Translations under genes and position numbers: made by a program
DNA from: a bacterium
GTDB taxonomy: Bacteria > Hydrothermota > Tepidihabitantia > Tepidihabitantales > Tepidihabitantaceae
Direction: 5' to 3'
Assembly: GCA_046485285.1 (NCBI GenBank)
Contig: JAWOHE010000062.1
Location: 1-44,748, forward strand
Length of the DNA stretch: 44,748 nucleotides
The notes under the pieces: generated by a model
Told to the model about the DNA's origin: nothing
The model's input: only the letters and a program-made list of their open reading frames with translations
Database searches by the model: none
In this document: in pieces, positions 4,879 to 33,189 of the stretch
Layout: every line of letters begins with the position of its first letter
Numbering within the stretch: the stretch's first letter is position 1

Positions 4879-6033
4879 CTATACCCGTCCCCACGTGCCC
4901 GACGAGCGCTTGTTCGGCTTGAAGGCCTTCAGCTTGTCGAGCACCTGGGGCAGGGTCGTGTACTCCATGTCCTTGAGGCCCAGCCGGTGCGGCTCGAACG
5001 GCCCGTGGCGGCGGATGTAGTCCGCGACCTCGTTGGCCTTCTGCCGGGCGAGGTCGAACGACGGGTCGTCGAACATGTCCCGCGGGCCGACCAGCCTGCC
5101 CTCGGCAAGCTGGAACCCGCAGGCAATCACCCGCGGCGGACCGTCGAAGCGCGACGGCGTCGCCTGCGCCCGCGAGGTCGGCATCATCGGGCCGTAGTGG
5201 GAGCCCCGCATCCAGCCCGAGACCATGTGCGGGAACGCGAACGGCTCCAGCGCCTCGCCGACCGCGGGCAGGCCGGACTGACAGCGGACAATCATCACCG
5301 GGTCGTCCTTGCCGACGTAGCGCCCGGCGATGAGCGCGAGCTTCTGGGTCGAGGTCGTCGCGGCAATGTCGCCCTTCTTCGTGAAGACATTCTGGATGAC
5401 GTAGTTCTCGGGCGAGCCGATGAGCACCAGCAGGTCGTACATCTGCTCCGGGCAGGCGAGCTTGACGTCCGTCCCGCCGTGCACGTCGTGGACCTGGAAC
5501 ACGAACCCGTCGTGCATCGACGGGTCGATGACCAGCCCGATGGTGTTGAACGGGTCGGCGAACATCCGGAACAGCGGCAGGTTCCAGGCCCCGGGTGCGC
5601 ACTTGTCACCGCAGAAGACCAGGACCGGCTCCGCCTTCCGCTCCTCGAAGGTCATCTCGGCACAGCCCGGCCCCATCCCCTTGACGTTGCCCGAGAACGA
5701 ATCGGCGAGCATATCCTGCCCCGCGCCGTAGAGCTTGAGCTTGCGCGCGAGCCGGGTCCCGTCCATGAAGATGTCCCAGGCCAGCTTATGGACCTGGCGG
5801 TTGTTGTCACCGTGGCGGTGGGTCATGATCAGGTCCATGTCGTCGCCGACGTTGGTGACGCGGAAGTCGACCAGGAAACCCTTCGCCTTGGCGGCCCCGA
5901 GCAGTTTCTCGGCCCGGGCCAGGATGTCGGGGTGGCTGGCCGAGTGGCCGACATAGCCGCCGATGTCGGCCTTGATGACGGATACGGTTATCCTGCTGTC
6001 GTTCTTCTTCGCGGGCCTCGTGCTCTTGGCCAT
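4879..6033 (-). CDS. fbp: Fructose-1,6-bisphosphate aldolase/phosphatase (FBPase class V)
   Basis: KADIGG..GH, VGDD, YGAGQD, YVGKDDP, GWMRGSH, RFDGPP; ATG 6033 after SD AGGAGGAG (the track's longer N-terminus is antisense to rplM). Confidence 0.95.
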   Translation of the reverse strand: MAKSTRPAKKNDSRITVSVIKADIGGYVGHSASHPDILARAEKLLGAAKAKGFLVDFRVTNVGDDMDLIMTHRHGDNNRQVHKLAWDIFMDGTRLARKLKLYGAGQDMLADSFSGNVKGMGPGCAEMTFEERKAEPVLVFCGDKCAPGAWNLPLFRMFADPFNTIGLVIDPSMHDGFVFQVHDVHGGTDVKLACPEQMYDLLVLIGSPENYVIQNVFTKKGDIAATTSTQKLALIAGRYVGKDDPVMIVRCQSGLPAVGEALEPFAFPHMVSGWMRGSHYGPMMPTSRAQATPSRFDGPPRVIACGFQLAEGRLVGPRDMFDDPSFDLARQKANEVADYIRRHGPFEPHRLGLKDMEYTTLPQVLDKLKAFKPNKRSSGTWGRV

Positions 6034-6135
6034 CGATTCTTCTCCTCCTGTTAGCTGCGCGGTGCCTCGCCCGGGCCGGTCGCCCGGCGCGAAGGCCACT
6101 GGCGATAAGCATAAGCCCGGCACGCCGGCGGTCAA
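6034..6135 (-). promoter_or_regulatory. fbp promoter and hairpin-containing leader
   Basis: TTGACC-16-TATGCT (6135-6108); leader GCCTTCGCGCCGGGC-GACCG-GCCCGGGCGAGGC can fold as one stem. Confidence 0.6.
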
Positions 6136-6166
6136 GCGCCGGCCGGAACCGGCCGCGAATCTTGAC

Positions 6167-6262
6167 TTGATTCCGGCCCGGACATCCATATAATGTCCAA
6201 CTCGCATTGCGAGTCCTTGTCCCATTGCCCGCAGTTGACAGGCTGGCTGTCTTGAGTATAAG
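6167..6262 (+). promoter_or_regulatory. Tandem promoters of the rplM operon
   Basis: TTGATT-16-TATAAT (6167-6194) and TTGACA-16-TATAAG (6235-6262). Confidence 0.65.
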
Positions 6263-6273
6263 GAACGACACTG

Positions 6274-6711
6274 ATGAAGACTTTTGTGCAGAAGAAGGAA
6301 GCGGTTCGCCGCAACTGGCACGTCATTGACGCCGACGGGCAGGTGCTCGGCCGGCTGGCGACCCGGGTCGCCGGGCTGCTGATCGGCAAGCACAAGCCCG
6401 ACTTCACCCCCCACGTCGACGCCGGGGACCACGTCATCGTCGTCAACGCCGGCGGCATCCGCGTCACCGGCAAGAAGCTGACCGACAAGATCTACTACCG
6501 CCACTCGTTCTTCCCGGGCGGGCTCAAGTCGCGGACCTACCAGCAGATGGTCGAGCGTTTCCCGACCCGGCCCCTCGAGCTGGCGGTCAAGCGAATGCTT
6601 CCCAAGAACCGCCAGCAGGCGCCGCGGATGAAGCGCCTGCACATCTACGTCGGCCCGGAGCACCGGCACCACGCCCAGCTCCGCGCCGAAACAGCATCGG
6701 TGGAGAAATGA
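6274..6711 (+). CDS. rplM: 50S ribosomal protein L13
   Basis: WHVIDADGQVLGRLA, GKHKPDFTPHVDAGD, YYRHS. Confidence 0.98.
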   Translation: MKTFVQKKEAVRRNWHVIDADGQVLGRLATRVAGLLIGKHKPDFTPHVDAGDHVIVVNAGGIRVTGKKLTDKIYYRHSFFPGGLKSRTYQQMVERFPTRPLELAVKRMLPKNRQQAPRMKRLHIYVGPEHRHHAQLRAETASVEK

Positions 6712-18896: not shown

Positions 18897-20990
18897 ATGT
18901 TTGACCCTGCGCCACGAGGAGTGCCGCTTGCGCGCGTGCGCAACATCGGCATCGCGGCGCACATCGACGCCGGCAAGACGACGACCACCGAACGCTTCCT
19001 CTATTATACCGGCCGGATTCACCGGATCGGCGAAATCGACGCGGGCACGACCCAGATGGACTGGATGATCCAGGAGCGCGAGCGCGGCATCACGATCACC
19101 TCGGCCGCCACCACGGTCCACTGGCGCGACAACCGCATCAACGTCATCGACACCCCGGGCCACGTCGACTTCACGATCGAGGTCGAGCGCTGTCTCAAGG
19201 TGCTCGACGGCGCGGTCATCGTCCTCTGCGCGGTCGGCGGCGTCGAGCCCCAGACCGAGACCGTCTGGCGCCAGGCCGACCGCTACCGCATTCCCCGGCT
19301 CGCCTTCGTCAACAAGCTCGACCGGGTCGGCGCCGACTTCGACCGCGTCGTCAAGATGATGGCCGAGACTTTCGAGCAGACCCCGCTCCCGGTCCAGCTT
19401 CCCATCGGCGTCGAGACCGAACACGAGGGCGTCATCGACCTAGTCGACAATGTCGCCTGCGTCTGGCACTCCGACGACCTCGGAGCGAGCTACGAGACCC
19501 TGCCGATTCCCGTCGCGCGCCGCGCCGAGGTCGAGGAGTACCGTCACCGGCTCGTCGACAAGCTGACAACAATCGACGAGCGGCTGCTCGAGAAGTACGT
19601 CTCCGGCGACGAGATAACGCCGGCGGACCTGCGCGCCGCGCTTCGCAAGGGCACGATCGAGCTCGCGGTCGTCCCGGTCTTCTGCGGCAGCGCCTTCCGG
19701 AACAAGGGCATCCAGAAGCTCATCGACGGCGTCGTCGACTACCTCCCCTCCCCGCTCGACGTGCCGCCGATCAGGGGCGAGAACCCGAGGACCGGCCAGC
19801 CCGAGACTCGCCCCGCCGACCCCGAAGCGCCGTTCTCCGCGCTCATCTTCAAACTCGCCACCGACCCGCACCGCGGGATGCTCAGCTACGTTCGGGTCTA
19901 CTCCGGGCGCATCAAACCTGGCGAGGTCGTCTGGAGCGTACCCGGGATGAGGCGCGTCCGGATGACCAAGCTCCTGATGATGCATGCGAACCACCAGGAG
20001 GAAGTCCCCGCGCTGTCGGCCGGCGAGATCGGCGCGGTCGTCGGGCTCAAGGACAGCCACACCGGCCAGACGCTGGCCAACTTGGCCCACCCGATCGCCT
20101 ACGAGTCGATCGAAGTACCCGAGCCGGTCGTATCGATTGCCATCGAGCCCCGGACCAAGGCCGAGGAACAGAAACTCCAGTCCTCGCTCCAGACCCTCGC
20201 GCTCGAGGACCCGACCTTCCGGCAGAACGTCGACGACGAGACGGGCCAGCTCGTGCTCTCGGGGATGGGCGAGCTCCACCTCGACATTCTGCTCGACCGC
20301 CTCGAGCGCGACTTCAAGGTCGGCGTCCACTCCGGCAAGCCGCAGGTCAGCTACCGTGAGACCATGACCGCGCCGGCGACCGCCGAGGGCCGGTTCGTCC
20401 GCCAGACCGGCGGCTCGGGGCACTTCGCCGTCGTCAAGCTCGCGCTTGAGCCCTGCCCAACCGGCAATGACATTCGCAACGAGGTCAGCCACGGCGCGCT
20501 TCCCGCCGAGTTCATCGAGGCGACCGTGCGCGGCATCCGGGACAGCTTCGAGGCCGGCGTCCTCGCCGGGTTCGAGGTCATCAATACTCGCGCCCGCATC
20601 CTCGACGGCCGGTTCCACGAAGTCGACTCGCGCGACGTCGACTTCAAGGTCGCGGCCGGCTCGGCCTTCCGCGACGCCTTTCTGGCCGGCCGGCCGACAT
20701 TCCTCGAGCCGATAATGGAGCTCGAAATCGTCACGCCCGAGCAGTACTTCGGCGGCGTCCTGGGCGATGTCACCGCCCGGAATGGCCGCATCATCCACAC
20801 CGAGCCGGTCAAGGGTCACCAGATCATCCGGGCCGAGGTCCCGCTCGCCTCGACCTTCGGATACGCGACGACCCTGCGCAGCCTCAGCCAGGGCCGGGCC
20901 TCCAGTTCGATGCAGTTCAAGACCTTCCGGCCGGTCGACCAAGACACCCGGGTCCGGCTCTACCCGCTCTTCGGCGAAAGGCCCGGATGA
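18897..20990 (+). CDS. fusA: Elongation factor G, stand-alone copy
   Basis: [47 protein letters not shown]. Confidence 0.95.
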
Positions 20991-21000
20991 CACGACCGGC

Positions 21001-21030
21001 GACCCTGCGCGGCGATGTTGACGCAGGGTC
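21001..21030 (+). terminator. Hairpin after fusA
   Basis: gaccctgcg...cgcagggtc inverted repeat. Confidence 0.5.
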
Positions 21031-21040
21031 AAGACCATCA

Positions 21041-21069
21041 TTGACAGGACCCGCGTGACAGGGTAACAT
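21041..21069 (+). promoter_or_regulatory. Promoter of the PorV/TonB operon
   Basis: TTGACA-17-TAACAT, 14 nt before ATG 21084, no SD. Confidence 0.65.
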
Positions 21070-21083
21070 TACAAATAGTAATC

Positions 21084-22712
21084 ATGAACGCAGCCTTGGG
21101 TCTGCTGTTGATTGCCCAGTTGAACTCGTTTGAGTTCGACTCGGTCTTCACGCCCCAGGTCGTCGGTGACTCATTCCCGGTCACGATCGTCGCCCGCGAC
21201 GGTTCGGGCGGAATCTACCCGTACAACGGCAACGCCCTGCTCTCGACGTCACTCGGGGCCTACGTCTACCCGAACATCGCCGAGTTCCAGAACGGCGTCT
21301 GGCAGGGCAGGGTGATAGTCACGCTGGCCGAGAACCTGTCGCTGCGCTGCATCGGCCCGCAGGCATCGGGCGAGAGCAACACCTTCGGCGTCGTGCCCGG
21401 TCCCCCGGACCGGCTGCTCGTTATCCTGCCCGGCGAGCGGGCCGCCCCGGGCTCGCCATCGGGCCGGCTGCCAAACCCGCCCCTGAACCAGTCGGCGGGC
21501 GAGCAATTCGATGTGACGGTCTACCTGACCGACAAGTGGCACAACACCGTCCCGGCCCGCAATGACAGCGTCCGCTTCTCGTCCTCGGACAACTTCGCAA
21601 ACATCCCTGCCGGCAGGCTCGCCAACGGCAGCGGGTCGTTCCCTGCTGTCCTCCGGGCGGCCGGAACCCAGCGGGTCTTCTGCCTCCCGGCCTCCTCGTC
21701 CCAGGTCAGCGCGGACACGTCGTCGCCACTGACCATCGTCCCGGGCGGCTACGAACGCCTGCTGGTCGTGCTCCCGGGCGAGGCCAACCTCCCCGGCGAC
21801 AACACCACCGAACCCGGCCAGACCCCGGGCAAGAACGGCAGCCCGAACGACCAGTTCCTGAGAAGGTTATTCCCGGTCACGGTCTACGGCTGCGACCAGT
21901 GCTGGAACATCGTCCGCGTGACGACCGACTCCGTCCGCCTCAACTCCGATGCACCCTTCGGCTCGACCCCGCCGGCCCTCGCGCTCGGTGACGGCGCCGT
22001 CTTCGACGTCGAGTTCCTGGAAGCCGGGCCCCGCCAGGGCATCTGGGCGACATCAGCGAGCGGAGGGGAGTCATACGTCAGCCGGTTTACGGTCCGGCCC
22101 CTTGTGGTGATGCTCGAGGTCGACGTGCCGGACACGGTCCGGGCCGGCGAGACCGCTTACGTCCGGGTGACGATGCGCGACGGCAACGAGGCCCCGGTCG
22201 TTGCCGCGCCCTGCTACTTCTCGGTGACCGCCGGCAACGGCGAGATGCTCGACCCGGTCCTGCTCTCAGACACCATCGGCCGGGCCACCGCCCGGTTCCT
22301 GTGCGACCGGGCGCGTGGCGACGAGCACGACACCATCAAGGTGTTCGCCGACACGACCGCCTACGCCGGGATCTTCGTGACGATGCCGGACTCGATGCTG
22401 CTCGACGGCGACATCGTGATCTTCCCGAACCCGTTCGGGTTCAACCAGGACCGGGCCGAGATCATCTACTTCCTGCGCAATGCCGCCCCGGTGACCGTGA
22501 CGATCTACGACACCTTCGGCAACGAGGTCTGCAACTGGCGCTTCAGCACCCGCGAGACCGGCGCCCTCGCCGGCGTCAACCGCATCTGGTGGGATGGCCG
22601 CAATTCGAAAGGCCGGAGGGTCGCCAACGGCATCTACGTCGTCCAGGTCATCGGCCAGCTTCACACCGGCACGGTCTTCAAGGCCGCCCGGCAGGTCGGG
22701 GTAGTATGGTGA
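21084..22712 (+). CDS. Secreted multi-Ig-like protein with C-terminal FlgD-Ig/T9SS-like domain
   Basis: Two LLVxLPGE...F.VTVY..D...N.V....DSVR repeats; FPNPF...VTIYDTFGNEV...WWDGRNSKGRRVANGIY. Confidence 0.8.
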   Translation: MNAALGLLLIAQLNSFEFDSVFTPQVVGDSFPVTIVARDGSGGIYPYNGNALLSTSLGAYVYPNIAEFQNGVWQGRVIVTLAENLSLRCIGPQASGESNTFGVVPGPPDRLLVILPGERAAPGSPSGRLPNPPLNQSAGEQFDVTVYLTDKWHNTVPARNDSVRFSSSDNFANIPAGRLANGSGSFPAVLRAAGTQRVFCLPASSSQVSADTSSPLTIVPGGYERLLVVLPGEANLPGDNTTEPGQTPGKNGSPNDQFLRRLFPVTVYGCDQCWNIVRVTTDSVRLNSDAPFGSTPPALALGDGAVFDVEFLEAGPRQGIWATSASGGESYVSRFTVRPLVVMLEVDVPDTVRAGETAYVRVTMRDGNEAPVVAAPCYFSVTAGNGEMLDPVLLSDTIGRATARFLCDRARGDEHDTIKVFADTTAYAGIFVTMPDSMLLDGDIVIFPNPFGFNQDRAEIIYFLRNAAPVTVTIYDTFGNEVCNWRFSTRETGALAGVNRIWWDGRNSKGRRVANGIYVVQVIGQLHTGTVFKAARQVGVVW

Positions 22713-24016
22713 CAATCGCGCGGTTCGGTGCGTGCGTCCTGCTCTGCCTCCTGCTGGCGGCGCCGGTCGCCGCCCGCGAGGGCGGATTGCCCGGCGCGTT
22801 CCTCGCCTACGGCGTCGCCCCGCGAAGTCTTGCGCTCGGCAAGGCCTTTACCGCCATAGCCGATGACCAGCAGGCCGGCTACTTCAATCCGGGCGGGTTC
22901 TTCCAGCTTGACGCCAGCGAGGTCATCGCCGCCCACTCCCAGCTCTACGGCGCTCGCCTCGAGTACGTCGGATACGCGTTCCCGACCCGCCGACTCGGTA
23001 CCTTCGCCGTGTCGCTCATCAACCACGGCGCCGAAGGGCTCGACTCGCGGACCCCTGGAAACGTTCGCTACGAGAGCTTCGCGGCGGCCGAGAACGCCTT
23101 CATGGCCTCCTACTGCCTCAGCCCCTGGACGCGCATCGGCGTCGGCGCGACCGCCAAGCTCGTCACCCAGAACATCGCCCAGTACTCCGACGTCGGCGTC
23201 GGCATCGATGCCGGCATCCTCGTCCGCGACCTGGGGCCTCTCAGCCTCGGACTCACCGTCCAGAACATTCTCCAGCCGACCCTCAAGCTGGCGACGCTCA
23301 CCGACGTCTACCCCCGGGCGCTGCGCGCCGGCCTCGGCGTCCGTCTGCTTGACAGCCGCGTGGTGGTCGCCGCCGACGCGGAGACGCCACTGCTATGGGA
23401 CGTTGCCCCCGACGGCAACCCGGTGCGGCGCTTCACGCCCGACTTCACGCCACACGTTGGCGTCGAGTTCCAAATCGTGCCGGGCGTCCTGCTCCAGCGG
23501 GTGGGAATCGACCCTAACGAGGTCAGCCTCGGGCTCGGGCTCCAGCACCACTGGGGCAGGATGGGGCTGGGCGCCGACTACGCCTTCCTGCTTCACCACC
23601 GCTCGAACTACCGGCTCGCGCCAACCCACAAGGTCGGCGTGTTTATCCGGTTCGCTGGCTTCCGCGTCTGGATCGACGCCCAGCCAGGCACCTTCAGCCC
23701 AACCCCGGAGAACCCGCAGAACGTGCTGAGGATGGACGTGAAGCTGGTCTCGCGCGCGCCGGCCAAACGCTGGCAGCTTCTCATCAAGAACGACCTGGGC
23801 GAGATCGTGCGGACCTTCGGCGGCTGGGACGCCCCCCCGCTGAGACTAAGCTGGGACGGGCTGGACGATGTCGGCAGGCTGGTCGCCGATGGCGACTACT
23901 CGTACGAGATCGTTGTGGTTGACCAGCGGGACTCCGGCCTTGACTTCTCGGGCTTCCTCACACGCGTCCGGACGCGCGGCCCGGAGGGCAAGATCGAGAT
24001 CCGTCCCGGCGAGTAG
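22706..24016 (+). CDS. PorV/PorQ (UPF0164)-family outer-membrane barrel fused to a FlgD-Ig domain
   Basis: Signal peptide; AFLAYGVAPRSLALGKAFTAIADD...YFNPGG; amphipathic strands; WDGLDDVGRLVADGDYSY. Confidence 0.8.
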   Translation: MVTIARFGACVLLCLLLAAPVAAREGGLPGAFLAYGVAPRSLALGKAFTAIADDQQAGYFNPGGFFQLDASEVIAAHSQLYGARLEYVGYAFPTRRLGTFAVSLINHGAEGLDSRTPGNVRYESFAAAENAFMASYCLSPWTRIGVGATAKLVTQNIAQYSDVGVGIDAGILVRDLGPLSLGLTVQNILQPTLKLATLTDVYPRALRAGLGVRLLDSRVVVAADAETPLLWDVAPDGNPVRRFTPDFTPHVGVEFQIVPGVLLQRVGIDPNEVSLGLGLQHHWGRMGLGADYAFLLHHRSNYRLAPTHKVGVFIRFAGFRVWIDAQPGTFSPTPENPQNVLRMDVKLVSRAPAKRWQLLIKNDLGEIVRTFGGWDAPPLRLSWDGLDDVGRLVADGDYSYEIVVVDQRDSGLDFSGFLTRVRTRGPEGKIEIRPGE

Positions 24017-24017
24017 G

Positions 24018-26531
24018 ATGCTCAGGCTTCTCCTGTTGCCGGCCCTGCTTGCCGGCGCCCTCAAACCCGACCAGGCCCGCCGGCTTGTCGAACGCTACAA
24101 CCGGGCGCAGGAAGTCGCCTCGGAACAGGGCCCGCACCAGTCCGTGCCGCTGTATGAGAAGCTCGTGCGCGACTTCGGCACCAGCGAGTACGGCGACGAG
24201 CTCAAGTTCGTGCTCGCCGAGACCCGTTTCAACGTAGGCGACTTCGCGCGCAGCCGCGACCTGTTCCGCCAGCTCGTCGAACGGTCGCGCCACGAGTACA
24301 TCCGGCCGGAGGCGATGTACGGCGTCGCTGTGGCGTCGGTGATGCTCGGGCAGTACGACCAGGCGCGCCTGGACCTCGAGGCGCTGGCCCGGCAGGCGGG
24401 CTACGACCGCGATGACCGCACCAACTTCGCATACGGCGTCCTGCACTACTTCCTCGGCGAGTACGAGCAGGCGGCGTCCCGCCTTGCCGACCTCGCGATG
24501 CCGAAGGCACGGTTCTTCCTCGCCAAGTGCCACGCCGCCCAGGGCCGCCCGGTACCAGCGCTCCTCGCTCTCAACGCGATCGCGGAAGAACTCCCGAACA
24601 CGCCGCTCGCGACGATGGCGCATTTCGCGGCCGGCGAGGCGCTCTTCCGGAACAGGGACTACGACGGGGCGCGCGCGAAGTTCCAGTACTTCGTCGACGA
24701 GTTCCCAAACTCCCCGCTCGCCGATTACGCCCACTACTTCCTCGGCTGCGCCCTGCTCGCCCGGCACCGGGAAGCCGACGCGATCAGGCACCTTCTGCCG
24801 CTGACCCGCCACAGCAACAACTACCTTGCAGCGCACGCTAACTACTTCATCGGCCACGCCCATGTCGCGCTCGGGCAGCCCGAGGACGCGATCGAGCGCT
24901 ACCAGCGCGTCCGCTCCAGCTACCCGAACACAAGGGTCGCCAGCTTCGCGAACCTCCAGCTCGCCCAGGCGATGCTTGCCACCGCCGACACTGCCCGGAC
25001 CCTGCTCGCGACCAGCCAGCTCGCGCAGATGTTCAGGACCGGCGACCTCTCCGGCGTCGGCGACTACCTTTCCGGGGTCGTCCTCTACCAGGCCGGCCGG
25101 CACTATGATGCCGCCCAGCAGTTCGAGAGGGTCATCACGCAGTACTCCGCCACCTCCCTCCGGGAGCCCGGGGCGGCGATGCTCCTGCTCGCCCTTAACG
25201 CGCTCGGACTTCACGACAAGGCCGTCGCGCTCGGCACGAAGTACCTCGCCGACTACCCGGACGGCCTGCCCGGCTGGCGGGCGCGCACTCTCTACTTCCT
25301 CGCCGAGGCCCAGTACTCCTCCGGCAAGTACGGCGACGCGGACGTCAACTACCAGCGCGCCTACGCGCATCCCGGCGCGGACGAAGTCCCCTCCTACTCC
25401 CGCCTCGGCCGCAACTACTGCCTCTACCACCTCGGCCGGCTCGGCGAGGCGGCCGACGGCTTCGCCTCCCTGCTCGGCTCCCGGCCCGGCGACACGCTCT
25501 TCACGATATCGGCCTGGCTCGGCCAGGGCTACTCGCTCTTCAACCAGCAGGAGTACACCGCGGCGCTCGACATCTTCGAGGCTCTGGCCAACACCTTCCC
25601 GGACGAGCCGCTTGCGGCAATCCCCGGGCTTTTCTACTCCGGCTGGTGCTACTACCAGCTCCGCTACTTCGGGCAGGCGGTCGACGCTTGGACGACCCTC
25701 ACCAACCGCTTCCCGGAACAGAACCCGAAGGCCGCCGAGGCCGCCTTCCGCACCGGCGACACCTACTTCAAGGCGCTCGAGTACAACAAGGCAATCGCCG
25801 CCTTTGCCTTCGTCACCGAGCGCTACCCGGCGTCCGACTTCGCCGCGCCCTCGCAGGCGCTCACGGCGCAGTGCTACTACAACCGCGGCCAGCACCTCGA
25901 CGCGGTCCGCGAGTACCAGAAGTTTCTCGACCTTTACCCCTCCGACCCGCAGGCGCCCAGCGTCCGCAGGAGCCTCGAAACGAGCTACTACCTGGCCGGG
26001 GCCGAGGACACCGCGGTAATGAACGACTTCCTGCGCCGCTACCCCCGATCCGAAATGGCCGCCGAAGGCCACTTCGACCGGAGCAAGAGCCTATTCGACC
26101 GGGGCCGGTTCGAGGAGGCCGCTACGGAGGCGCAGAAGGTCGTCGTCAACTTCCCGGGCTACCCGCTTGCCGGCGATGCCCAGTTGCTCGCCGCGGAGTC
26201 CTGGTCCAAGCTCGGCGACTGGACTGCTGCGGCCTCCGCCTACCGCAAGTTCCTCGCCTGGTTCCCGGACCACGCCCAGCTCGTCGGTGCCTGGTTCAAC
26301 CTCGGCACGGCATACTTCAACGCCGGGGAGTACCAACTCAGCCTTGAGGCCTTCTCAACTGTCGTCGACCAGCACCCCGAATCCGAGTATGTCGAGAGCG
26401 CGCGCATAAATGTCGAGCTGTGCCGCAAGCGGCTGGGAAGCACGCCCTCCGGCGAGCGGGCCGGCGACGCGGAAGAGGACCGCCCCGCCGGGGACTCGCC
26501 GGTCCAGCCAACTGAAGGAGGACGTCAATGA
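24018..26531 (+). CDS. Large exported tetratricopeptide-repeat protein (BamD/CpoB-like repeats)
   Basis: Signal peptide; many F/YPxSxxA..A.Y..G TPR units. Confidence 0.9.
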   Translation: MLRLLLLPALLAGALKPDQARRLVERYNRAQEVASEQGPHQSVPLYEKLVRDFGTSEYGDELKFVLAETRFNVGDFARSRDLFRQLVERSRHEYIRPEAMYGVAVASVMLGQYDQARLDLEALARQAGYDRDDRTNFAYGVLHYFLGEYEQAASRLADLAMPKARFFLAKCHAAQGRPVPALLALNAIAEELPNTPLATMAHFAAGEALFRNRDYDGARAKFQYFVDEFPNSPLADYAHYFLGCALLARHREADAIRHLLPLTRHSNNYLAAHANYFIGHAHVALGQPEDAIERYQRVRSSYPNTRVASFANLQLAQAMLATADTARTLLATSQLAQMFRTGDLSGVGDYLSGVVLYQAGRHYDAAQQFERVITQYSATSLREPGAAMLLLALNALGLHDKAVALGTKYLADYPDGLPGWRARTLYFLAEAQYSSGKYGDADVNYQRAYAHPGADEVPSYSRLGRNYCLYHLGRLGEAADGFASLLGSRPGDTLFTISAWLGQGYSLFNQQEYTAALDIFEALANTFPDEPLAAIPGLFYSGWCYYQLRYFGQAVDAWTTLTNRFPEQNPKAAEAAFRTGDTYFKALEYNKAIAAFAFVTERYPASDFAAPSQALTAQCYYNRGQHLDAVREYQKFLDLYPSDPQAPSVRRSLETSYYLAGAEDTAVMNDFLRRYPRSEMAAEGHFDRSKSLFDRGRFEEAATEAQKVVVNFPGYPLAGDAQLLAAESWSKLGDWTAAASAYRKFLAWFPDHAQLVGAWFNLGTAYFNAGEYQLSLEAFSTVVDQHPESEYVESARINVELCRKRLGSTPSGERAGDAEEDRPAGDSPVQPTEGGRQ

Positions 26532-27244
26532 TAATGGGCAAGACGCTGTTCGAGATCTTCCGAAGCAGCCCGGTGATGCTGATACTGCTTGCGGCCTCGA
26601 TAGCATCCCTCGCGCTGATCATCGAGCGCCTCGTCTACTTCACTCGCAACCGCTTCAACCCGGCGCGCAGTCTCGTCGAGACCCGGAACCGCCTGCGGTC
26701 AGGTGGCGTCGACGAAGCACTCCGCTGGGTCCGGACGCAGGAGAACCCTCTCGGACGGCTCTTCGCCATCGCACTTGAGAACCCCGGCCTGACCGGCGAG
26801 GAGGTATCGGACCTGCTCTATGGCGCGATCCTCGAGGAACGCGTCAGGTTCGAGCGGCTGCTCGGCGGTATGGGAACGCTGGCCAACGCCGCCACCCTGC
26901 TCGGCCTGCTCGGCACCGTGACCGGCCTCATCCAAGCCTTCGGCAATATCGCCGCGACAGGCTCCGGCGGGCCGGCGGTGGTCTCCGGCGGCATCGCCGA
27001 GGCCCTCCTCACGACCGCATTCGGTCTCATCATCGGCATCCCGACGCTCTTCTGCTACAACTACTTCTCCAAGAAGGCCGCCGACACGACGATGGTCCTC
27101 GAAAGCACGACCGACCGTTTTATGGTCCTGCTCGAGCGCTACAAGCGCGCCGCCGGTGTCGGCCAGGACTCGATGGCCCCGTCCCGGCCGGCGCCGGGAC
27201 CCGCGCCCCGGCAAACTGGAAAGGCCGACGGCTGGGAGTTCTGA
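26528..27244 (+). CDS. exbB: MotA/TolQ/ExbB proton-channel subunit
   Basis: LLGLLGTVTGLIQAF, GIAEALLTTAFGL. Confidence 0.93.
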   Translation: MIMGKTLFEIFRSSPVMLILLAASIASLALIIERLVYFTRNRFNPARSLVETRNRLRSGGVDEALRWVRTQENPLGRLFAIALENPGLTGEEVSDLLYGAILEERVRFERLLGGMGTLANAATLLGLLGTVTGLIQAFGNIAATGSGGPAVVSGGIAEALLTTAFGLIIGIPTLFCYNYFSKKAADTTMVLESTTDRFMVLLERYKRAAGVGQDSMAPSRPAPGPAPRQTGKADGWEF

Positions 27245-27660
27245 TGCGACGCCCGCACCGCCACGCCGTCACCCGCAGCGAGCTGAACCTGACCTCGCTC
27301 GTCGACGTCGCGCTGGCGCTGGTCATCGGCTTCATTGTCTCGATCCCGCTGTTCTTCGAAACCGGCATATTCGTCTCCGCCCCCGGCGTCGCCCGCGCCG
27401 AGGCGACCGAGGAAGGATCCGATGTCAAGGCTAACATCTACATCGACAACGACGGCCGGATCTTCCTGAACGAAGCAGTCGTGTCCGGTGACAACCTAGC
27501 CGACCTGCTGCCCCGGCTCCTCGAGCGCAGCCTTGAGAAGCGGGTCGTCGTCTCGTCCGGTGATATGGTGCAGTATGACGCGGTCATCAGGATACTGGAC
27601 ATCGCCAAGCAGTCGGGCGCCGCGGACCTTGCACTGCTGCGCCGGAGGCCGGCCGAGTGA
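27244..27660 (+). CDS. exbD: ExbD/TolR subunit with conserved Asp
   Basis: ELNLTSLVDVALALV; periplasmic YDAVIRILDIAKQSG. Confidence 0.9.
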   Translation: MRRPHRHAVTRSELNLTSLVDVALALVIGFIVSIPLFFETGIFVSAPGVARAEATEEGSDVKANIYIDNDGRIFLNEAVVSGDNLADLLPRLLERSLEKRVVVSSGDMVQYDAVIRILDIAKQSGAADLALLRRRPAE

Positions 27661-28058
27661 AATCCGCCTCTATTGACATCCTGCCGATGGCCGCGGTCGG
27701 GTTGATCCTCGTGCTGGTGATGATGGTGATCGCCCCGATGACGATGGCGCACAACGACACCCCGGTGGCGGTGCCGGCGGCACGAACCGCCGAGCGCAAG
27801 GTCGAGGAAAATGTCACCATCAGCTATACCGCGGGGCGGGAACTTCTCCTCAACGACGTTCGATTCGACGACCTGTTCGCGCTCGAGCGCCGGCTCGAAG
27901 GGGAAATCATCCGCGACCCGTACGTCCTCGTCGTCGTTCGGGCCGACCGGGAAGTGCTCCACTCCGAGGTCCTGGACATTCTGGCGATGGCCCGTCGGGC
28001 CGGCGCGCTGCGCATCGCCTGCGCGACAAAACGCGTCGATGAGGACCCGATCCGATGA
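27657..28058 (+). CDS. exbD: Second ExbD/TolR subunit, conserved Asp replaced by Ala
   Basis: IDILPMAAVGLILVLVMMV; VVVRADREV...LAMARRAG. Confidence 0.85.
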   Translation: MKSASIDILPMAAVGLILVLVMMVIAPMTMAHNDTPVAVPAARTAERKVEENVTISYTAGRELLLNDVRFDDLFALERRLEGEIIRDPYVLVVVRADREVLHSEVLDILAMARRAGALRIACATKRVDEDPIR

Positions 28059-28984
28059 ACGAACTCTCGCTCGGGGTCGTGAGCGGTGGGCGGCGCTCCC
28101 GGATGATCGACATCGCGGCCGTCGTCTCCACCGCACTCCACATCGGGTTCATCCTCCTCGCGTCCCGCACCCAGCCGGCGGGCGACTACGCCCCGGACCT
28201 GCACGAAGTCGCGTTCATGGACGTGACCTACCGGCCCGAGGTCGCGAGGGTCATCGCGCCGGCCGGCTCGCCGGGCGGCGCGGGCCCGGTGTCCGCAGAC
28301 GCACCGGCCTACGCCCCCTCCTTTGCGCCGGACCCCGCCGCGGCGATCGACCTTTCTGCGACAATGGAGCGCGACAAGAGCCAGGCCAGGATCGACCTCG
28401 ACGGCTTCGAGCTCGACCGGGACGGCGGGATGGACGTCGTCCGACTCGGCGGCGAGGGCGCGGGCAAGTCAACCGAAGAGATCCTTGCCCAGCCGAAGGT
28501 CAACCTCGCCGGCAGTCTCGACCGCTCCGGCGCCGCGGCTACCGGCCTGCGCGGCTACCCCGGGGTCCGACCACCCAAGGCCCAGCTCCAGATCGAGCAC
28601 CGCCCGCTCGCCAAGGCCCCGGCGGCCAAGCTGCCGACGATCGCAACCGAGGAACTGCCCCGGACAACTGCCGCGCCGACAACCGGCTCCGGGTTCAGCG
28701 TCGCGGGGCCGATATCAGAGCGCACCATCAACCGGCGTGTGCTGCCCCGGTACCCGAAGTGGGCACTCGACCGGCGGGTATCGGGCACGGTCGTCGTCAG
28801 ACTCTGGGTGGTGGCAAACGGCAAGGTCAAAGGAACGCCGGCTGTCGAGACCAGTTCCGGCTACCCGGATCTGGACCAGGTCGTCGTCAGCGCGCTCCGC
28901 CAGTGGGAATTCGAGCCGCTCGCGCCCGGGGTCAAGAGCGAGGACCAGTGGGGCGTGATAACGTTCCGGTTCACGCTGTCCTGA
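28055..28984 (+). CDS. tonB: TonB family energy transducer
   Basis: TM with S..LH (STALH), Pro/Ala-rich linker, PRYPKWA...GTVVV...SSGYPDLD...WEFEP. Confidence 0.92.
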   Translation: MNELSLGVVSGGRRSRMIDIAAVVSTALHIGFILLASRTQPAGDYAPDLHEVAFMDVTYRPEVARVIAPAGSPGGAGPVSADAPAYAPSFAPDPAAAIDLSATMERDKSQARIDLDGFELDRDGGMDVVRLGGEGAGKSTEEILAQPKVNLAGSLDRSGAAATGLRGYPGVRPPKAQLQIEHRPLAKAPAAKLPTIATEELPRTTAAPTTGSGFSVAGPISERTINRRVLPRYPKWALDRRVSGTVVVRLWVVANGKVKGTPAVETSSGYPDLDQVVVSALRQWEFEPLAPGVKSEDQWGVITFRFTLS

Positions 28985-28985
28985 C

Positions 28986-29858
28986 ATGCTGACGTTGCTC
29001 TTGCTGACGCTCCTGGCCCAGGCACCCCATCAGGGCGTCCCCGGGGCCGAACAGCACGGCCTCGGCGAGGAAGAGATAACCGGCGAGGCGACCGTGCTGA
29101 TAACCGACCGCAAGATTCCATTCGCCCCGCAGTTTGACCCGCTCTCGGCCGTCCAGGACCACCTTTTGCCGGATAGCTACGTCTTCGACGAAACCCTCTC
29201 GCGCACCGCCGACTCCCTCAGCATCCCCCACCACTTCATCAGGTCCTCCTACCTCCGCGTGCCTGTAGAGAAGGACTTCATCTACGGCGACATCATGGTG
29301 TTTCTGCCGGTGTTCGAGAGACGAGTCTCAACGTGGACGCTTGACATATCCAACTCCCTCGGCGAGACCGTGAGGCGGGTCACCAGATCCGGGCATCCAC
29401 CGGCCACAATTACCTGGGACGGCAGAACCGACAACGGCGAGCCAATAGCGACAGGCGACGTCTACAGCTTCACCTTCAACGCCTTTGACGCACAGGGTAA
29501 CCAGACTCGCCTGCCCGGGATACCCCGACGCGTTGACGCCATGGTGTTCCGTGCTGACAAGGAAGCCACGGTCTCACTCGCCGCTGAACTGCTCTTCGTG
29601 CATGGCACAAGCCGCCTCCATGAGGCTGCTGCACGCCGCCTCGACGAGGCCGCGAACATCATCCGCGAGGCTCCTCGCAGAGAGGTCATCATCTACGTCT
29701 ACTCCGAGTTCGAGAGGCTCTCGACCGAACGCTGCAACGTCATGCGCGCAGAGATCGAACGGCGCGTCGTCCTGCCATCGGGCGCCCTGTCAGTTGCGCC
29801 CAGGTTCACCCCCGGTCTCAAGCCCAAGTTCTCAAAGGTTGAGATCCTGGTTCGCTAG
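28986..29858 (+). CDS. Exported FlgD-Ig plus degenerate OmpA-C-like protein
   Basis: WTLDISNSLGETVR...WDGRTDNG; LLFVHGTSRL...LDEAA...LSTERC. Confidence 0.7.
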   Translation: MLTLLLLTLLAQAPHQGVPGAEQHGLGEEEITGEATVLITDRKIPFAPQFDPLSAVQDHLLPDSYVFDETLSRTADSLSIPHHFIRSSYLRVPVEKDFIYGDIMVFLPVFERRVSTWTLDISNSLGETVRRVTRSGHPPATITWDGRTDNGEPIATGDVYSFTFNAFDAQGNQTRLPGIPRRVDAMVFRADKEATVSLAAELLFVHGTSRLHEAAARRLDEAANIIREAPRREVIIYVYSEFERLSTERCNVMRAEIERRVVLPSGALSVAPRFTPGLKPKFSKVEILVR

Positions 29859-29979
29859 TATTCCATCGAAACTGCCGGCCGCCAATCGAGCATGACGACA
29901 ACCGGTTTCAGTACAGTTCTGTGCGATCGCGGCCCGGACGCTTGTTGACTGACCCGGCTGGTCGATTAGTATAGCCGTC

Positions 29980-31422
29980 ATGAAAGACGAAGGCCTCGTA
30001 AGGGAGATACCGAGGAAGTCCGAGGACTTCTCCGAGTGGTACTCCGCGGTCGTGCTCAAGTCAGGACTTGCCGACTACGCGCCGGTACGCGGCTGCATGG
30101 TCATCCGGCCCCATGGCTACGCCCTCTGGGAGAACATGCAGGCCCGACTCGACGCCCGCTTCAAGGCGACCGGCCACGTCAACGCCTACTTCCCCACGCT
30201 AATCCCCGAGAGCTTCTTCAAGAAGGAAGCCCGGCACGTCGAAGGCTTCGCGCCCGAGGTCTGGTGGGTGACTCATCGTGGCGCGGACGAACTCGAGGAG
30301 CGGCTGGCCCTGCGCCCGACCTCGGAAGCGGTCATCAACGCGATGTTCGCCCGCTGGGTTAAATCCTGGCGTGACCTGCCGGTGCTGATGAACCAGTGGT
30401 GCAACATCTTCCGCGCCGAGAAGGCGACCCGGCTCTTCCTGCGCACGAGCGAGTTTCTCTGGCAAGAAGGCCACACTCTCCACCGCACGCAGGAGGAGGC
30501 TGAAGAAGAGACGCTGAAGATCCTGAACCTCTACCTCGACTTCCTGAAGAACGACCTCGCCCTGCCCGTGCTGGCCGGGCTGAAGCCCGAGAGCGAGAAG
30601 TTCGCGGGCGCGGACAAGACCTACGCGATGGAAGCGATGATGCCCGACGGGCAGGCCCTGCAGGCCGGGACGTCGCACAACCTCGGCCAGGGTTTCGCAC
30701 GGGCGTTCGAGATCAAGTACCTGGACGAGAACAACACCGAACAGCTCCCCTGGGGCACTTCCTGGGGCGTTACGACCCGGCTCATCGGCGCGCTGGTGAT
30801 GACCCACGGTGACGACCGCGGGCTGTTCCTGCCCCCGAAGGTCGCCCCGATCCAGGCGGTTATCGTACCGGTCCTGTTTGGCAAGAACGACGAAGCGGTA
30901 CTGGCCCGGTGTCGCGAGGCGGAGGCGGTGCTCGAAGGCATCCGGGTCCGGGCCGACTTCTCAACCAACCAGACCGCGGGCTGGAAGTACAACCAGTACG
31001 AGATGCTGGGCGTGCCGGTCCGGGTCGAGATCGGACCGAAGGACGTCGAAAAGCAGGGCGCGGTGCTCGTGCCCCGGGACGGCAGCGGCAAGCGGTTCAT
31101 CAAGTTCGCGGACCTGCGGGCAGAAGTCGAGAAGCTGCTCGACGAGGTCCAGGCCGCGATGTATCGGAACGCGCTCACACGGCTGGAAGCGATGATGTCC
31201 GAGGCCGGCGATTTCGAGGAGTTCCGCCGGAAGCTGGCCGAGAAGCCGGGCTTCGTTCGGGTGGCGTGGTGCGGAACGCAGGAGTGTGAGAACCGCATCG
31301 TCGCGGAGACAAGAACCACCCCGCGGGTAATGGTCCCGACGGAGCAGGGCGAAACGCACCGCAGGTGCATCGCCTGCGGCAGGGACACGGACACCGTCAT
31401 CTACTACGCCCGGACCTATTGA
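29980..31422 (+). CDS. proS: Proline--tRNA ligase, archaeal/eukaryote-like type
   Basis: FSEWY, ALRPTSE, FLRTSEFLWQEGHT, LQAGTSHNLGQ, ends YYARTY. Confidence 0.97.
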   Translation: MKDEGLVREIPRKSEDFSEWYSAVVLKSGLADYAPVRGCMVIRPHGYALWENMQARLDARFKATGHVNAYFPTLIPESFFKKEARHVEGFAPEVWWVTHRGADELEERLALRPTSEAVINAMFARWVKSWRDLPVLMNQWCNIFRAEKATRLFLRTSEFLWQEGHTLHRTQEEAEEETLKILNLYLDFLKNDLALPVLAGLKPESEKFAGADKTYAMEAMMPDGQALQAGTSHNLGQGFARAFEIKYLDENNTEQLPWGTSWGVTTRLIGALVMTHGDDRGLFLPPKVAPIQAVIVPVLFGKNDEAVLARCREAEAVLEGIRVRADFSTNQTAGWKYNQYEMLGVPVRVEIGPKDVEKQGAVLVPRDGSGKRFIKFADLRAEVEKLLDEVQAAMYRNALTRLEAMMSEAGDFEEFRRKLAEKPGFVRVAWCGTQECENRIVAETRTTPRVMVPTEQGETHRRCIACGRDTDTVIYYARTY

Positions 31423-31468
31423 CCCGGCTGTCCGGATGTCTGCCCGCGTGCAGGGCGCAGGCGGGCCC

Positions 31469-33094
31469 CTAGCGGATCGTAATCAGCGGCAGGAGCTTCG
31501 CGAGTGTCTTAGGACCGATCCCCTTGACTCTGCCGAGGTCGTCGACTGCCCGGAAAGCGCCGATGGAGGACCGGTATTCGATTATTCGTGCGGCGGTCTT
31601 CGGACCGATGCCGGGCAGCCGCTCGAGCTCGGCGGCATCGGCGGTGTTGATGTTGACCGACCCGCGGAGGCCCTCGATCGGGGCGAATCCCGGGCCGGCA
31701 GAAGTGCGCCTCGGGAGAGCCACTGCCCGCAGAGTATCAATACGCCCGGCATGCTCGAGCCAGAGCCCGGTCAGCGACACCGCGACCGATCGCCCCGGCA
31801 CGGTGATGCCGGAGGCGGCGAGCAGTCGCTCCGTCGTCACGACTCGCCACTCTGGCTTGCGCAGGGCCGGCCTGAGCCGGGCCACCTCGCGCCCGAGTGG
31901 CCAGCCAACGTCCGCGCCGGGCATCACGAGAATATCGGCGCCTGCTACCATCGGTGCGGGGAGCTTGGGGTCCCGGCCCCGGATGAGTGCGTGCAGCAGC
32001 GTGTCATCAAGCTGCGCTACGCGAAGCCGATCCTCGAACGGCGCGACCGCCCTAAGCTCGTGCCTTCTCGGCCGGCCCGCCGCCAGGCCTGACCCGACCA
32101 CCTCTAACGGCAGGATTGCGACATCGGCAGCTGCCCGATCACGGCAGGCCTCGGCCAGCACTGCCGCGGTCTCCGTACGCCCGAGCTCGACGGACACGAA
32201 CGGCCCGGCTGAGTCCTCGCTTGGGATCGCGACCTCGGCGATCAGGCGCTCGAGACCGTCAGAGCCTCGATCAGCCGGTAGCACGTTCACCGAACGACGA
32301 TTGACCTGTAGGAGCCGGCGAGTCTTGCGGTCAAACAGCATGTCGACAACCGCGAGCCGCTGTGACATACGCGGCACCGGTACCAGCCGGTCGTGGCTTG
32401 CCGCGCCGCCGTCATCCGGACAGACGGCCAGCGCAAGCGCGGGAAAGCTGTCGAGCAACAGGACGCCTTCGGCGGGCGGGAAGCTGCCCAGGGCAATGAT
32501 AACGTCAGGCGTGTCGGCAACGACTGCCGGCAGGTAGCGCCGCAGTTGCTCGAGCGGGCTGCCCGGGACAAAGGCCGCGGCATCGCCTGCGGAGACGACC
32601 GGCACAGACAAGGCCACAAGTGCCACCCGCAGGCCGGCAACGTCTCGAACGACCCACGGCCGGAACAGCGGCGTGCGTCGGTTCAGCAGGACATCAAGTA
32701 TCGGATCGGCCAGCACTGGGAAGCCCGCGAGCCGAGCCAGCACCTCGAGGTTGTTGATCCCCCATGTGAAGTCGCGCGCCCCGACCGCGGCCCCATCGTA
32801 ACCGGCGAGGTTCATGTACCGCACCGCCGCCCGCCCCCAAGTTGCCGTGGCCTCGGCCGAGCCAGCCGCGTAGTTGCCGCAGTCAAGGAGCAATGCCGGT
32901 TCGGCACGCTCGACGCCGATTGTCTGTTCGAGCCCGCGCCAGCCGCCAAGCAGACGCCGCGGCTCGCCCGGTGCCTCGAAATCCGGTGCTGGCCGGATCC
33001 GGCACTCGACATTGGCGGTCACCAGCAACCGGACCCGGCCGATTTCTCCGTCCGGCTGGGCACAGAACAGGTTGATTGCCACCAGCAGGGCCAC
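31469..33094 (-). CDS. Degenerate 5'-nucleotidase-like protein fused to ComEA helix-hairpin-helix domain
   Basis: LLLDCGN, MNLAGYDGAAVGARDF; VNINTADAAELERLPGIGPKTAARII. Confidence 0.8.
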   Translation of the reverse strand: MALLVAINLFCAQPDGEIGRVRLLVTANVECRIRPAPDFEAPGEPRRLLGGWRGLEQTIGVERAEPALLLDCGNYAAGSAEATATWGRAAVRYMNLAGYDGAAVGARDFTWGINNLEVLARLAGFPVLADPILDVLLNRRTPLFRPWVVRDVAGLRVALVALSVPVVSAGDAAAFVPGSPLEQLRRYLPAVVADTPDVIIALGSFPPAEGVLLLDSFPALALAVCPDDGGAASHDRLVPVPRMSQRLAVVDMLFDRKTRRLLQVNRRSVNVLPADRGSDGLERLIAEVAIPSEDSAGPFVSVELGRTETAAVLAEACRDRAAADVAILPLEVVGSGLAAGRPRRHELRAVAPFEDRLRVAQLDDTLLHALIRGRDPKLPAPMVAGADILVMPGADVGWPLGREVARLRPALRKPEWRVVTTERLLAASGITVPGRSVAVSLTGLWLEHAGRIDTLRAVALPRRTSAGPGFAPIEGLRGSVNINTADAAELERLPGIGPKTAARIIEYRSSIGAFRAVDDLGRVKGIGPKTLAKLLPLITIR

Positions 33095-33189
33095 AGTGGC
33101 AATATAACCGCCCGTGAAATCGAAGTCAAAGTCGGCGAACCGCCGGCGCGTCCTTGACTCGCGGGGTCGAAGTCCTAGAATGGCCCGTC

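Follow-up and report, generated by a model that had tools for sequence, protein, structure and literature searches.

The window, i.e., the whole analysed stretch of 44,748 nt (contig JAWOHE010000062.1, hereafter C84), belongs to a 2.34-Mb assembly of 102 contigs, from an uncultured bacterium, that is 88% complete; close relatives of the source genome are titled "candidate division WOR-3". Between fusA (18897–20990) and proS (29980–31422) it carries a block of eight co-directional genes, g1–g8, in which proteins resembling those of a type IX secretion system (T9SS) stand together with a Ton/Tol-type motor. The block is conserved as a unit in WOR-3 and may encode a proton-driven machine that acts on its own surface proteins. 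The genes are listed below; here and further on, Ig denotes immunoglobulin-like domains, TPR the tetratricopeptide repeat, and CTD the T9SS-type C-terminal domain.

21084..22712, + strand: g1, 542 aa, Ig-repeat protein with a CTD
22706..24016, + strand: g2, 436 aa, PorV-like barrel with an extra Ig domain
24018..26531, + strand: g3, 837 aa, TPR protein
26528..27244, + strand: g4, 238 aa, MotA/TolQ/ExbB-family proton channel subunit
27244..27660, + strand: g5, 138 aa, first ExbD/TolR-family subunit
27657..28058, + strand: g6, 133 aa, second, divergent ExbD/TolR-family subunit
28055..28984, + strand: g7, 309 aa, TonB-like transducer
28986..29858, + strand: g8, 290 aa, FlgD_ig domain and degenerate OmpA-like domain
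21041..21069, + strand: promoter-like site TTGACA-17 nt-TAACAT, 10/12 consensus matches, by consensus match alone

The intergenic junctions from g1 to g8 measure -7, +1, -4, -1, -4, -4, and +1 nt, in agreement with the preliminary description of this DNA, which had placed eight genes here, overlapping or 1 nt apart. The start codons chosen are those that open signal peptides: for g2, a longer GTG frame from 22301 falls within g1, and the ATG at 22706 starts the signal peptide, and the signal peptide of g3 begins at the ATG at 24018. The promoter-like site ends 15 nt 5' of the g1 start codon, so that the leader would be very short; two such sites occur in the 10 kb scanned, compared with 0.9 +/- 1.0 in shuffled sequences. 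A sigma-54 promoter was rejected, as no TGGCAC-N5-TTGC-like site with at most two mismatches was found in 20801–21100.

The motor proteins g4–g7 are recognised as family members, all over the Pfam cut-offs: g4 matches MotA_ExbB (PF01618, 95.9 bits), g5 and g6 match ExbD (PF02472, 65.5 and 52.7 bits), and g7 matches TonB_C (PF03544, 49.4 bits; tonB_Cterm, 62.9 bits) at residues 231–308. The equivalog level is reached by none of them: g4 scores 86.2 bits with tolQ (cut-off 221) and 75.7 bits with exbB (cut-off 206.2); for the ExbD-family pair, ExbD_1 gives 36 bits (cut-off 152.95) and tolR 51 and 48.3 bits (cut-off 127.3); and g7 scores 29 bits with TonB PRK10819 (cut-off 377). The N-terminal membrane helix of g7 holds a histidine, H29, kept in at least 90% of 33 sequences. 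It is followed by a linker of ~190 residues with a conserved central block (residues ~98–150, window 28340–28510; pattern IDL...LER..SQA.IDL ... KSTEEIL). The per-column conservation of this block (0.42–0.59) is nearly that of the C-terminal domain (0.58–0.66), which suggests a binding site and not a mere spacer. A match of g7 to the AgmX/PglI tail model (22.7 bits, cut-off 40) arises because the TonB_C fold is common to both. No TonB-dependent receptor, TolB, or Pal model is matched by any of the eight proteins (Pfam, NCBIfam), as had been described.

The TPR protein g3 has a signal peptide without a lipobox cysteine and forms a long solenoid of YbgF/CpoB- and BamD-like units (TPR_6, 153.6 bits). 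Its score with tol_pal_ybgF (TIGR02795, 214.9 bits, cut-off 90.1) is read as likeness to CpoB/YbgF at the domain level, not as orthology, since it sums seven repeated stretches of an 837-aa protein. With PorW/SprE g3 scores 82.3 bits (cut-off 250); other TPR proteins of 430–550 aa score equally or better and are present in family f5 too, and g3 was therefore rejected as the PorW/SprE of this lineage.

In g8, a signal peptide and a poorly modelled linker precede a FlgD_ig domain (residues ~100–184, 34.5 bits) and an OmpA-like alpha/beta domain (~185–290). The mean pLDDT (predicted local distance difference test) score of the model is 75, and ~90 for residues 100–290. In fold, the Ig domain matches FlgD (Z 9.6) and the CTD of PorU (Z 9.0). 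The profile matches of g8 include DotK/YiaD (E 1.4e-4) and MotB (E 3e-3), and with the genome's own Pal it aligns in register, weakly (hhalign, E 0.096), keeping the LSxxR motif. The Atlas neighbours of g8 include Spirochaetota families with FlgD_ig and OmpA domains, and some g8-like Atlas clusters carry the labels Elusimicrobiota or Krumholzibacteriota. Across 34 sequences of the phylum, the most conserved part of the first 100 residues is a motif directly after the signal peptide, h-G-E-E-V-I-(T/K)-G-E...K-I-x-D. In our judgement, it resembles a TonB box; that of the genome's own receptor reads ELPPVVATA.

The first two genes appear to form a surface pair. In the g1 protein, a short hydrophobic N-terminus is followed by Big_1/invasin-like Ig repeats and, at ~446–525, by a C-terminal type A/FlgD_ig domain (FlgD_ig in Pfam, 32 bits, cut-off 27). 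The type A CTD assignment is marginal, Por_Secre_tail (TIGR04183) giving 23.9 bits with a cut-off of 23, and 27.4 bits in a six-frame scan. FlgD is a match for the C-terminal domain, and the CTDs of PorZ (PG93, E 0.028) and PorU (E 0.23) are weak ones; structural neighbours of g1 are Ig-repeat proteins, and an Atlas cluster of Krumholzibacteriota Big_1/FlgD_ig proteins of ~1000 aa resembles it (template modelling score, TM, 0.68). The g2 protein comprises a signal peptide, a PorV/FadL-like beta-barrel (~70–316), and a C-terminal FlgD_ig beta-sandwich (~320–421), the barrel followed by the sandwich being reproduced by its model (mean pLDDT 86.5); the mature N-terminus opens straight into the PorV core. 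Among solved structures, g2 is matched best by the PorV chains from Flavobacterium SprA complexes, 8gl6_F (E 4.2e-11) and 6h3i_F (E 1.9e-10), with TodX and FadL next. The Ig domains of g2 and g8 are alike, with 30–46% identity over ~50 residues.

Elsewhere in the source genome, which has eight PorV-family matches and two PorU-like genes, one of them adjoining PorV, a PorV-family barrel likewise adjoins a gene with a CTD-like end at C21:8793-9961, C101:101653-102800, C35:26496-27899, and C96:13225-18054, its neighbour on C96 being a PorU-like gene. Pairs of cargo and barrel look like a general building block of this genome. On contig C35, a 2909-aa frame without a family match (24366-33095, + strand) runs antisense over a PorV gene and a CTD match; in this genome of 68% G+C it is probably a spurious antisense frame.

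Comparison of related loci shows strong conservation of the block. All eight genes keep the same gene order in 15 of the 16 loci of the same taxonomic order, g1 being the first gene in these 15. In the remaining genome, G008, which consists of a single contig, the block is split inside g3 between two places on contig C1, at ~662 kb and ~157–161 kb (loci L016 and L061, ~500 kb apart; L016 includes a masked stretch): g1, g2, and g3 residues 1–391 lie at one, and g3 residues 351–823 through g8 at the other, which is either a rearrangement or a misassembly. Among 17 loci of other families or classes, g3, ExbB, ExbD, TonB, and g8 are co-linear in 16; g2 adjoins g3 in 13, two of the four exceptions being contig ends; and g1 is detectable by tblastn in 12. 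Three loci of other WOR-3 classes (L048, L051, L060) have two adjacent ExbB genes. No flanking gene family is common to more than 4 of 31 loci; the order is kept as the flanks change, and the eight genes are therefore a conserved unit. In the operons of the related loci examined there is no receptor-type, TolB, or Pal gene; the preliminary description had named the consistent presence of such a gene in relatives as evidence against its proposal.

The operon is single-copy in the genomes that carry it. The g2 orthologue, also single-copy, is missing from f5 but present in the other four of the order's five families. With the g8 profile, a full-length homologue was found in 128 of the 189 genomes that are at least 90% complete and none in the other 61, including f5 (0/7) and f15 (0/13); f21, f23, and most of f31 also gave none. 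Outside the phylum, the same profile gave only Ig-domain matches in one genome each of Zixibacteria, Melioribacteraceae, Latescibacterota, Bacteroidetes, and Spirochaetota. A search of other phyla with the divergent g8-like protein P0173 returned nothing, and with P0177 only partial FlgD_ig matches. In a library of 1.84 billion proteins, ~17 full-length g8-like proteins are among the 150 matches listed, the search being swamped by giants with multiple FlgD_ig domains.

The source genome has three MotA/ExbB genes, g4 included. One belongs to a cluster at C19:36985-40016 (- strand, locus L001) with Pal, CpoB, TolQ (191.6 bits), and TolR in this order, among the neighbours of which no TolA or TolB was recognised (NCBIfam, Pfam). 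Another belongs to an ExbB–ExbD–ExbD–TonB operon at C95:15503-29912 (locus L002, 7001-26500), where TonB is followed by a 610-aa CTD protein, a 371-aa unknown protein, a 929-aa TonB-dependent receptor, and a 1007-aa unknown protein; just downstream, a further CTD match accompanies a PorV-family barrel (197.7 bits), and family f5 shows the beginning of this arrangement as well. As the Tol-type cluster and the Ton operon exist separately, the studied operon is the third motor of the genome.

The genome also has ~65 Por_Secre_tail matches over the cut-off in a whole-genome scan. The translocon protein SprA occurs in 149 of 151 WOR-3 genomes, scoring over the cut-off in 139 of them, and all 18 genomes examined from the same family have it; in G006, it is a 1880-aa gene amid housekeeping genes. 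It was not found in the 88%-complete source assembly, also not by tblastn with SprA of one same-genus and two same-family genomes, and none of the eight largest open reading frames, considered as candidates, matches it. Given its occurrence in the relatives, SprA is likely missing owing to an assembly gap.

A complete GldKLMN set, which the preliminary description had named, together with an operon that is not conserved, as evidence against its motor, was found in none of the 41–61 WOR-3 genomes searched, with the reservation that these are profile searches, which very divergent homologues could escape. GldM, GldL over the cut-off, and GldK (E <= 1e-30) were each found in 0/61 genomes and GldN in 0/41, and all of them were found in 5/5 Bacteroidota control genomes, reached via a 16S probe search; for GldL, there are faint matches in eleven WOR-3 genomes, in frames of 280–1199 aa. 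Matches to GldK in the source genome are FGE-sulfatase domains on Ser/Thr kinases and were rejected. Three FGE-sulfatase-domain proteins giving such false matches, one of them fused to a Ser/Thr kinase, are encoded at C15:247-13142 (locus L072), among more kinases, a PP2C phosphatase, and a group II intron reverse transcriptase. To judge by sequence profiles, WOR-3 has a type IX-like system in which the known motor and ring were not detected, outside the phylum to which T9SS is confined according to reviews (PMC5445135).

The analysis establishes the gene content of the operon, its domain identities and folds, its strict co-linearity, its distribution in the phylum, and its independence from the rest of T9SS. 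With about even confidence, we propose that the operon encodes a dedicated force-transmitting, proton-driven machine that spans the envelope and acts on its own surface module; the protein–protein contacts, the topology, and the output of this machine are what we infer. In such a machine, g4, g5, and g6 would form a Ton/Tol-type stator in the inner membrane, the source of force, and g7 would relay the force through the periplasm. The periplasmic scaffold would be g3, which might bind the conserved linker of g7, as GltD binds GltG in the Agl–Glt model. The periplasmic g8 would present its TonB-box-like N-terminal strand to g7, and its Ig domain, paralogous to that of g2, together with its OmpA-like domain would form a bridge from the barrel to the wall. 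The PorV-like barrel g2 would reside in the outer membrane with its Ig domain in the periplasm, since a barrel of this kind has its two ends on the periplasmic side. The g1 protein would be exported by the cell's T9SS translocon and held on g2 via its C-terminal domain, as in known pairs of cargo and cognate shuttle. The motor would then pull on or rearrange the g8–g2–g1 end; possible outputs are to move, expose, tension, or release g1, to couple it to the wall, or to tether the envelope.

Several observations weigh against this proposal. In the label "FlgD-Ig/OmpA-like", given to g8 in the preliminary description, the FlgD_ig part holds, whereas the OmpA part becomes tentative: g8 has no PF00691 or Pal_lipo match (Pfam, NCBIfam) and no lipobox cysteine; the fold of its C-terminal domain aligns with TssL1, DotK, and a MotB-like protein at Z 7.5–7.7, graded middling; the alignment to Pal is degenerate, the 9-residue loop that forms the peptidoglycan pocket of Pal being absent; and residues 1–100, which hold the TonB-box-like strand, are poorly modelled. 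The score of g2 with PorV_fam (NF033709) is 68.4 bits, under the cut-off of 90. In 5 of the 17 distant loci g1 was not detected by tblastn, and in L048 the motor, TonB, and g8 are present without g1–g3; the surface module may thus be replaceable or dispensable. A look for RNA data sets containing the operon found none. Finally, a third of the near-complete WOR-3 genomes manage without the operon, hence it is accessory.

The preliminary description had assigned the operon a more general role, in which a Ton-type motor replaces the missing GldLM/PorLM and powers the export, release, or anchoring of CTD proteins at large. Such a role would suit the near-universal SprA, the PorU-like and PorV-like genes and dozens of CTD proteins of the genome, the failure to find GldK, L, M, and N where the controls worked, and the parallel between the operon parts and T9SS roles (motor, TPR, PorV-like barrel, wall anchor). 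The distribution of the operon speaks against it. The families f5 and f15, without g8 in any genome, keep SprA in 6/7 and 13/13 genomes, respectively; f5 has only two MotA/ExbB genes in 5/5 genomes and no g2 or g8 orthologue, yet it carries 56 to at least 98 CTD matches per genome, compared with 29–53 in the operon-bearing f4 and 47 to at least 98 in f1; the matches in f5 are no fewer than in genomes with the operon. In addition, g3 does not rank first among the PorW/SprE-like proteins of these genomes, and the "likely cargo" that had been proposed at 1–1213, 40677, and 43829 of the window has no CTD match (Pfam, NCBIfam), the only Por_Secre_tail match on this contig in the whole-genome scan being g1. 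Whole families that have SprA and no fewer CTD proteins lack the operon, which makes a motor for CTD export in general unlikely, and we assign it a low probability; the operon may still play such a role for g1 alone, its own CTD protein. A tether similar to Tol–Pal or PorE is also doubtful, if somewhat less so. It would be a second system linking the outer membrane, the wall, and the inner membrane in the service of envelope integrity or division, with g3 as CpoB, g7 as TolA, g8 as a fused TolB box and Pal-like anchor, g2 as the outer-membrane partner, and g1 as a passenger. The YbgF/CpoB-like units of g3 (214.9 bits over seven stretches), the slightly higher scores of g4–g6 on TolQ/TolR than on ExbB/ExbD models, the alignment of the g8 C-terminal domain to OmpA-like wall anchors, and the reading of PorE as a CpoB–TolB–Ig–Pal fusion, possibly driven in a TolA/TonB-like manner (PMC12204202), are all consistent with it. 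However, TolQ–TolR–CpoB and Pal are already present on contig C19; TolB is missing, g8 is no lipoprotein, and the pocket loop of Pal is absent from it; loss from whole families is not expected of an integrity or division system; and the tether has no room for the CTD protein and the PorV-like barrel, which are strictly linked.

Uptake is a further explanation, and a very improbable one. Here, g1 would capture a substrate at the surface, and import would run through the FadL/PorV-like g2 as the channel with energy from the Ton motor, the operon being a receptor-less variant of the one on C95. The FadL/TodX fold of g2 agrees with this, as does the C95 operon, which joins a TonB-dependent receptor, CTD proteins, and a PorV-like barrel. 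Against it, the operon has no plug-bearing receptor and no binding-protein or enzyme domain; the TonB-box-like motif is found on the periplasmic g8 and not on the barrel, mature g2 opening directly with the PorV core; and FadL-type channels are not known to require energy. A wider reading joins the dedicated machine to the type IX-like system: WOR-3 would have a surface system without GldKLMN in which individual PorV-like barrels are wired to their own Ton-type motors, the studied operon being one such unit and a third motor-to-adhesin machine beside Flavobacterium GldLM–SprB and Myxococcus Agl–Glt. In it, the pull of TonB, passed on by the TonB-box strand of g8 and by CTD-like Ig domains, would reach a barrel with a surface Ig protein bound to it, resulting in surface movement, gliding, or regulated exposure of that protein, and such wiring could be ancestral to the dedicated T9SS motor. 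We regard this joint reading as speculative and improbable.

Each part of the operon has counterparts in described systems. In the T9SS cargo/barrel pairs of Bacteroidota (PorU–PorV, PorZ–PorQ, SprB–SprF, PorP-like), the gene of a CTD protein likewise adjoins that of a PorV/PorQ-family barrel, and the genetic linkage of a T9SS substrate and its cognate shuttle is presented as an established principle (PMC12618676). The pair g1–g2 differs in being translationally coupled to a full Ton/Tol-type motor, a TPR protein, and an OmpA-like protein, in the additional C-terminal Ig domain and below-cut-off family score of g2, and in its occurrence in WOR-3, a lineage without detected GldKLMN. With classical Ton systems the operon shares the families of g4–g7, the conserved histidine in the helix of g7, and the two ExbD genes, as in the C95 operon; it differs in that no TonB-dependent receptor is present in the operon or its relatives, the equivalog cut-offs are missed, and the g7 linker has a conserved block in place of a plain spacer. 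With Tol–Pal and PorE it shares the 5:2-type stator family, a TolA/TonB-like transducer, and CpoB-like TPR units; PorE, proposed to be a CpoB–TolB–Ig–Pal fusion that may use TolA/TonB force (PMC12204202), has in its C-terminal half an Ig-like and then an OmpA-like domain, like g8, and the N-terminal strand motif of g8 could act as a TolB box. Unlike these systems, the operon has neither a TolB propeller (no TolB, PD40, or WD40 match) nor a lipoprotein, its OmpA-like domain is degenerate, it includes an outer-membrane barrel and a surface protein, and a separate Tol–Pal-like cluster is present in the same genome.

Machines that act beyond the inner membrane are also similar. The Agl–Glt/Nfs systems of Myxococcus, as portrayed in PMC11761067, likewise have one TolQ-like and two different TolR-like subunits, transducers with TonB-C-like domains, large periplasmic TPR proteins, and outer-membrane barrels that hold a surface protein; in the Agl–Glt model given there, the TonB-like domains and the linker bind the TPR protein GltD. 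In contrast to Agl–Glt, the operon and its flanks have no genes of the cytoplasmic platform (AglZ, MglA, GltI), its barrel belongs to the PorV/FadL type, and a T9SS-type Ig-repeat protein takes the place of a vWA lipoprotein as the surface protein; the only related model match is the below-cut-off AgmX/PglI tail on g7, direct comparison with GltA/B/D/E being outside the analysis. The TPR–tolQ–tolR–tolR–vWA "force transducer" clusters of the Planctomycetes–Verrucomicrobia–Chlamydiae (PVC) group, described in PMC12204202, have the same order and a membrane-anchored transducer with a conserved histidine; here, the head of the transducer is TonB_C and not vWA, and the operon has a CTD protein, a PorV-like barrel, and an OmpA-like protein besides. 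All the parts thus belong to known families, but no paper was found that combines a Ton motor and a TPR protein with a CTD protein, a PorV-like barrel, and an Ig/OmpA-like protein. Nor did any turn up on the operon itself, on T9SS in either WOR-3 or Krumholzibacteriota, or on a link between PorV, ExbB, and TonB, in a search that did not cover the supplementary locus tables of PMC12204202, which may list related clusters.

If the operon indeed encodes a dedicated machine, it would be a new member of the small set of systems that bring the energy of the proton-motive force from the inner membrane out to the surface of the cell (Ton, Tol–Pal, flagellar stators, GldLM–T9SS, Agl–Glt), and T9SS-type parts, i.e., a CTD protein and a PorV-like barrel, could plug into a Ton-type motor. 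The question of what energises type IX secretion outside Bacteroidota is sharpened, since SprA is nearly universal in WOR-3 while GldKLMN were not found, and it now has named candidate genes. The conserved N-terminal strand of g8 provides a precise binding hypothesis.

Away from the operon, the window contains a frame at 4879–6672 (- strand) that matches FBPase_3 (fructose-1,6-bisphosphatase, PF01950) with 583 bits; the listed frame has ~226 surplus N-terminal residues, hence it probably starts too far upstream.

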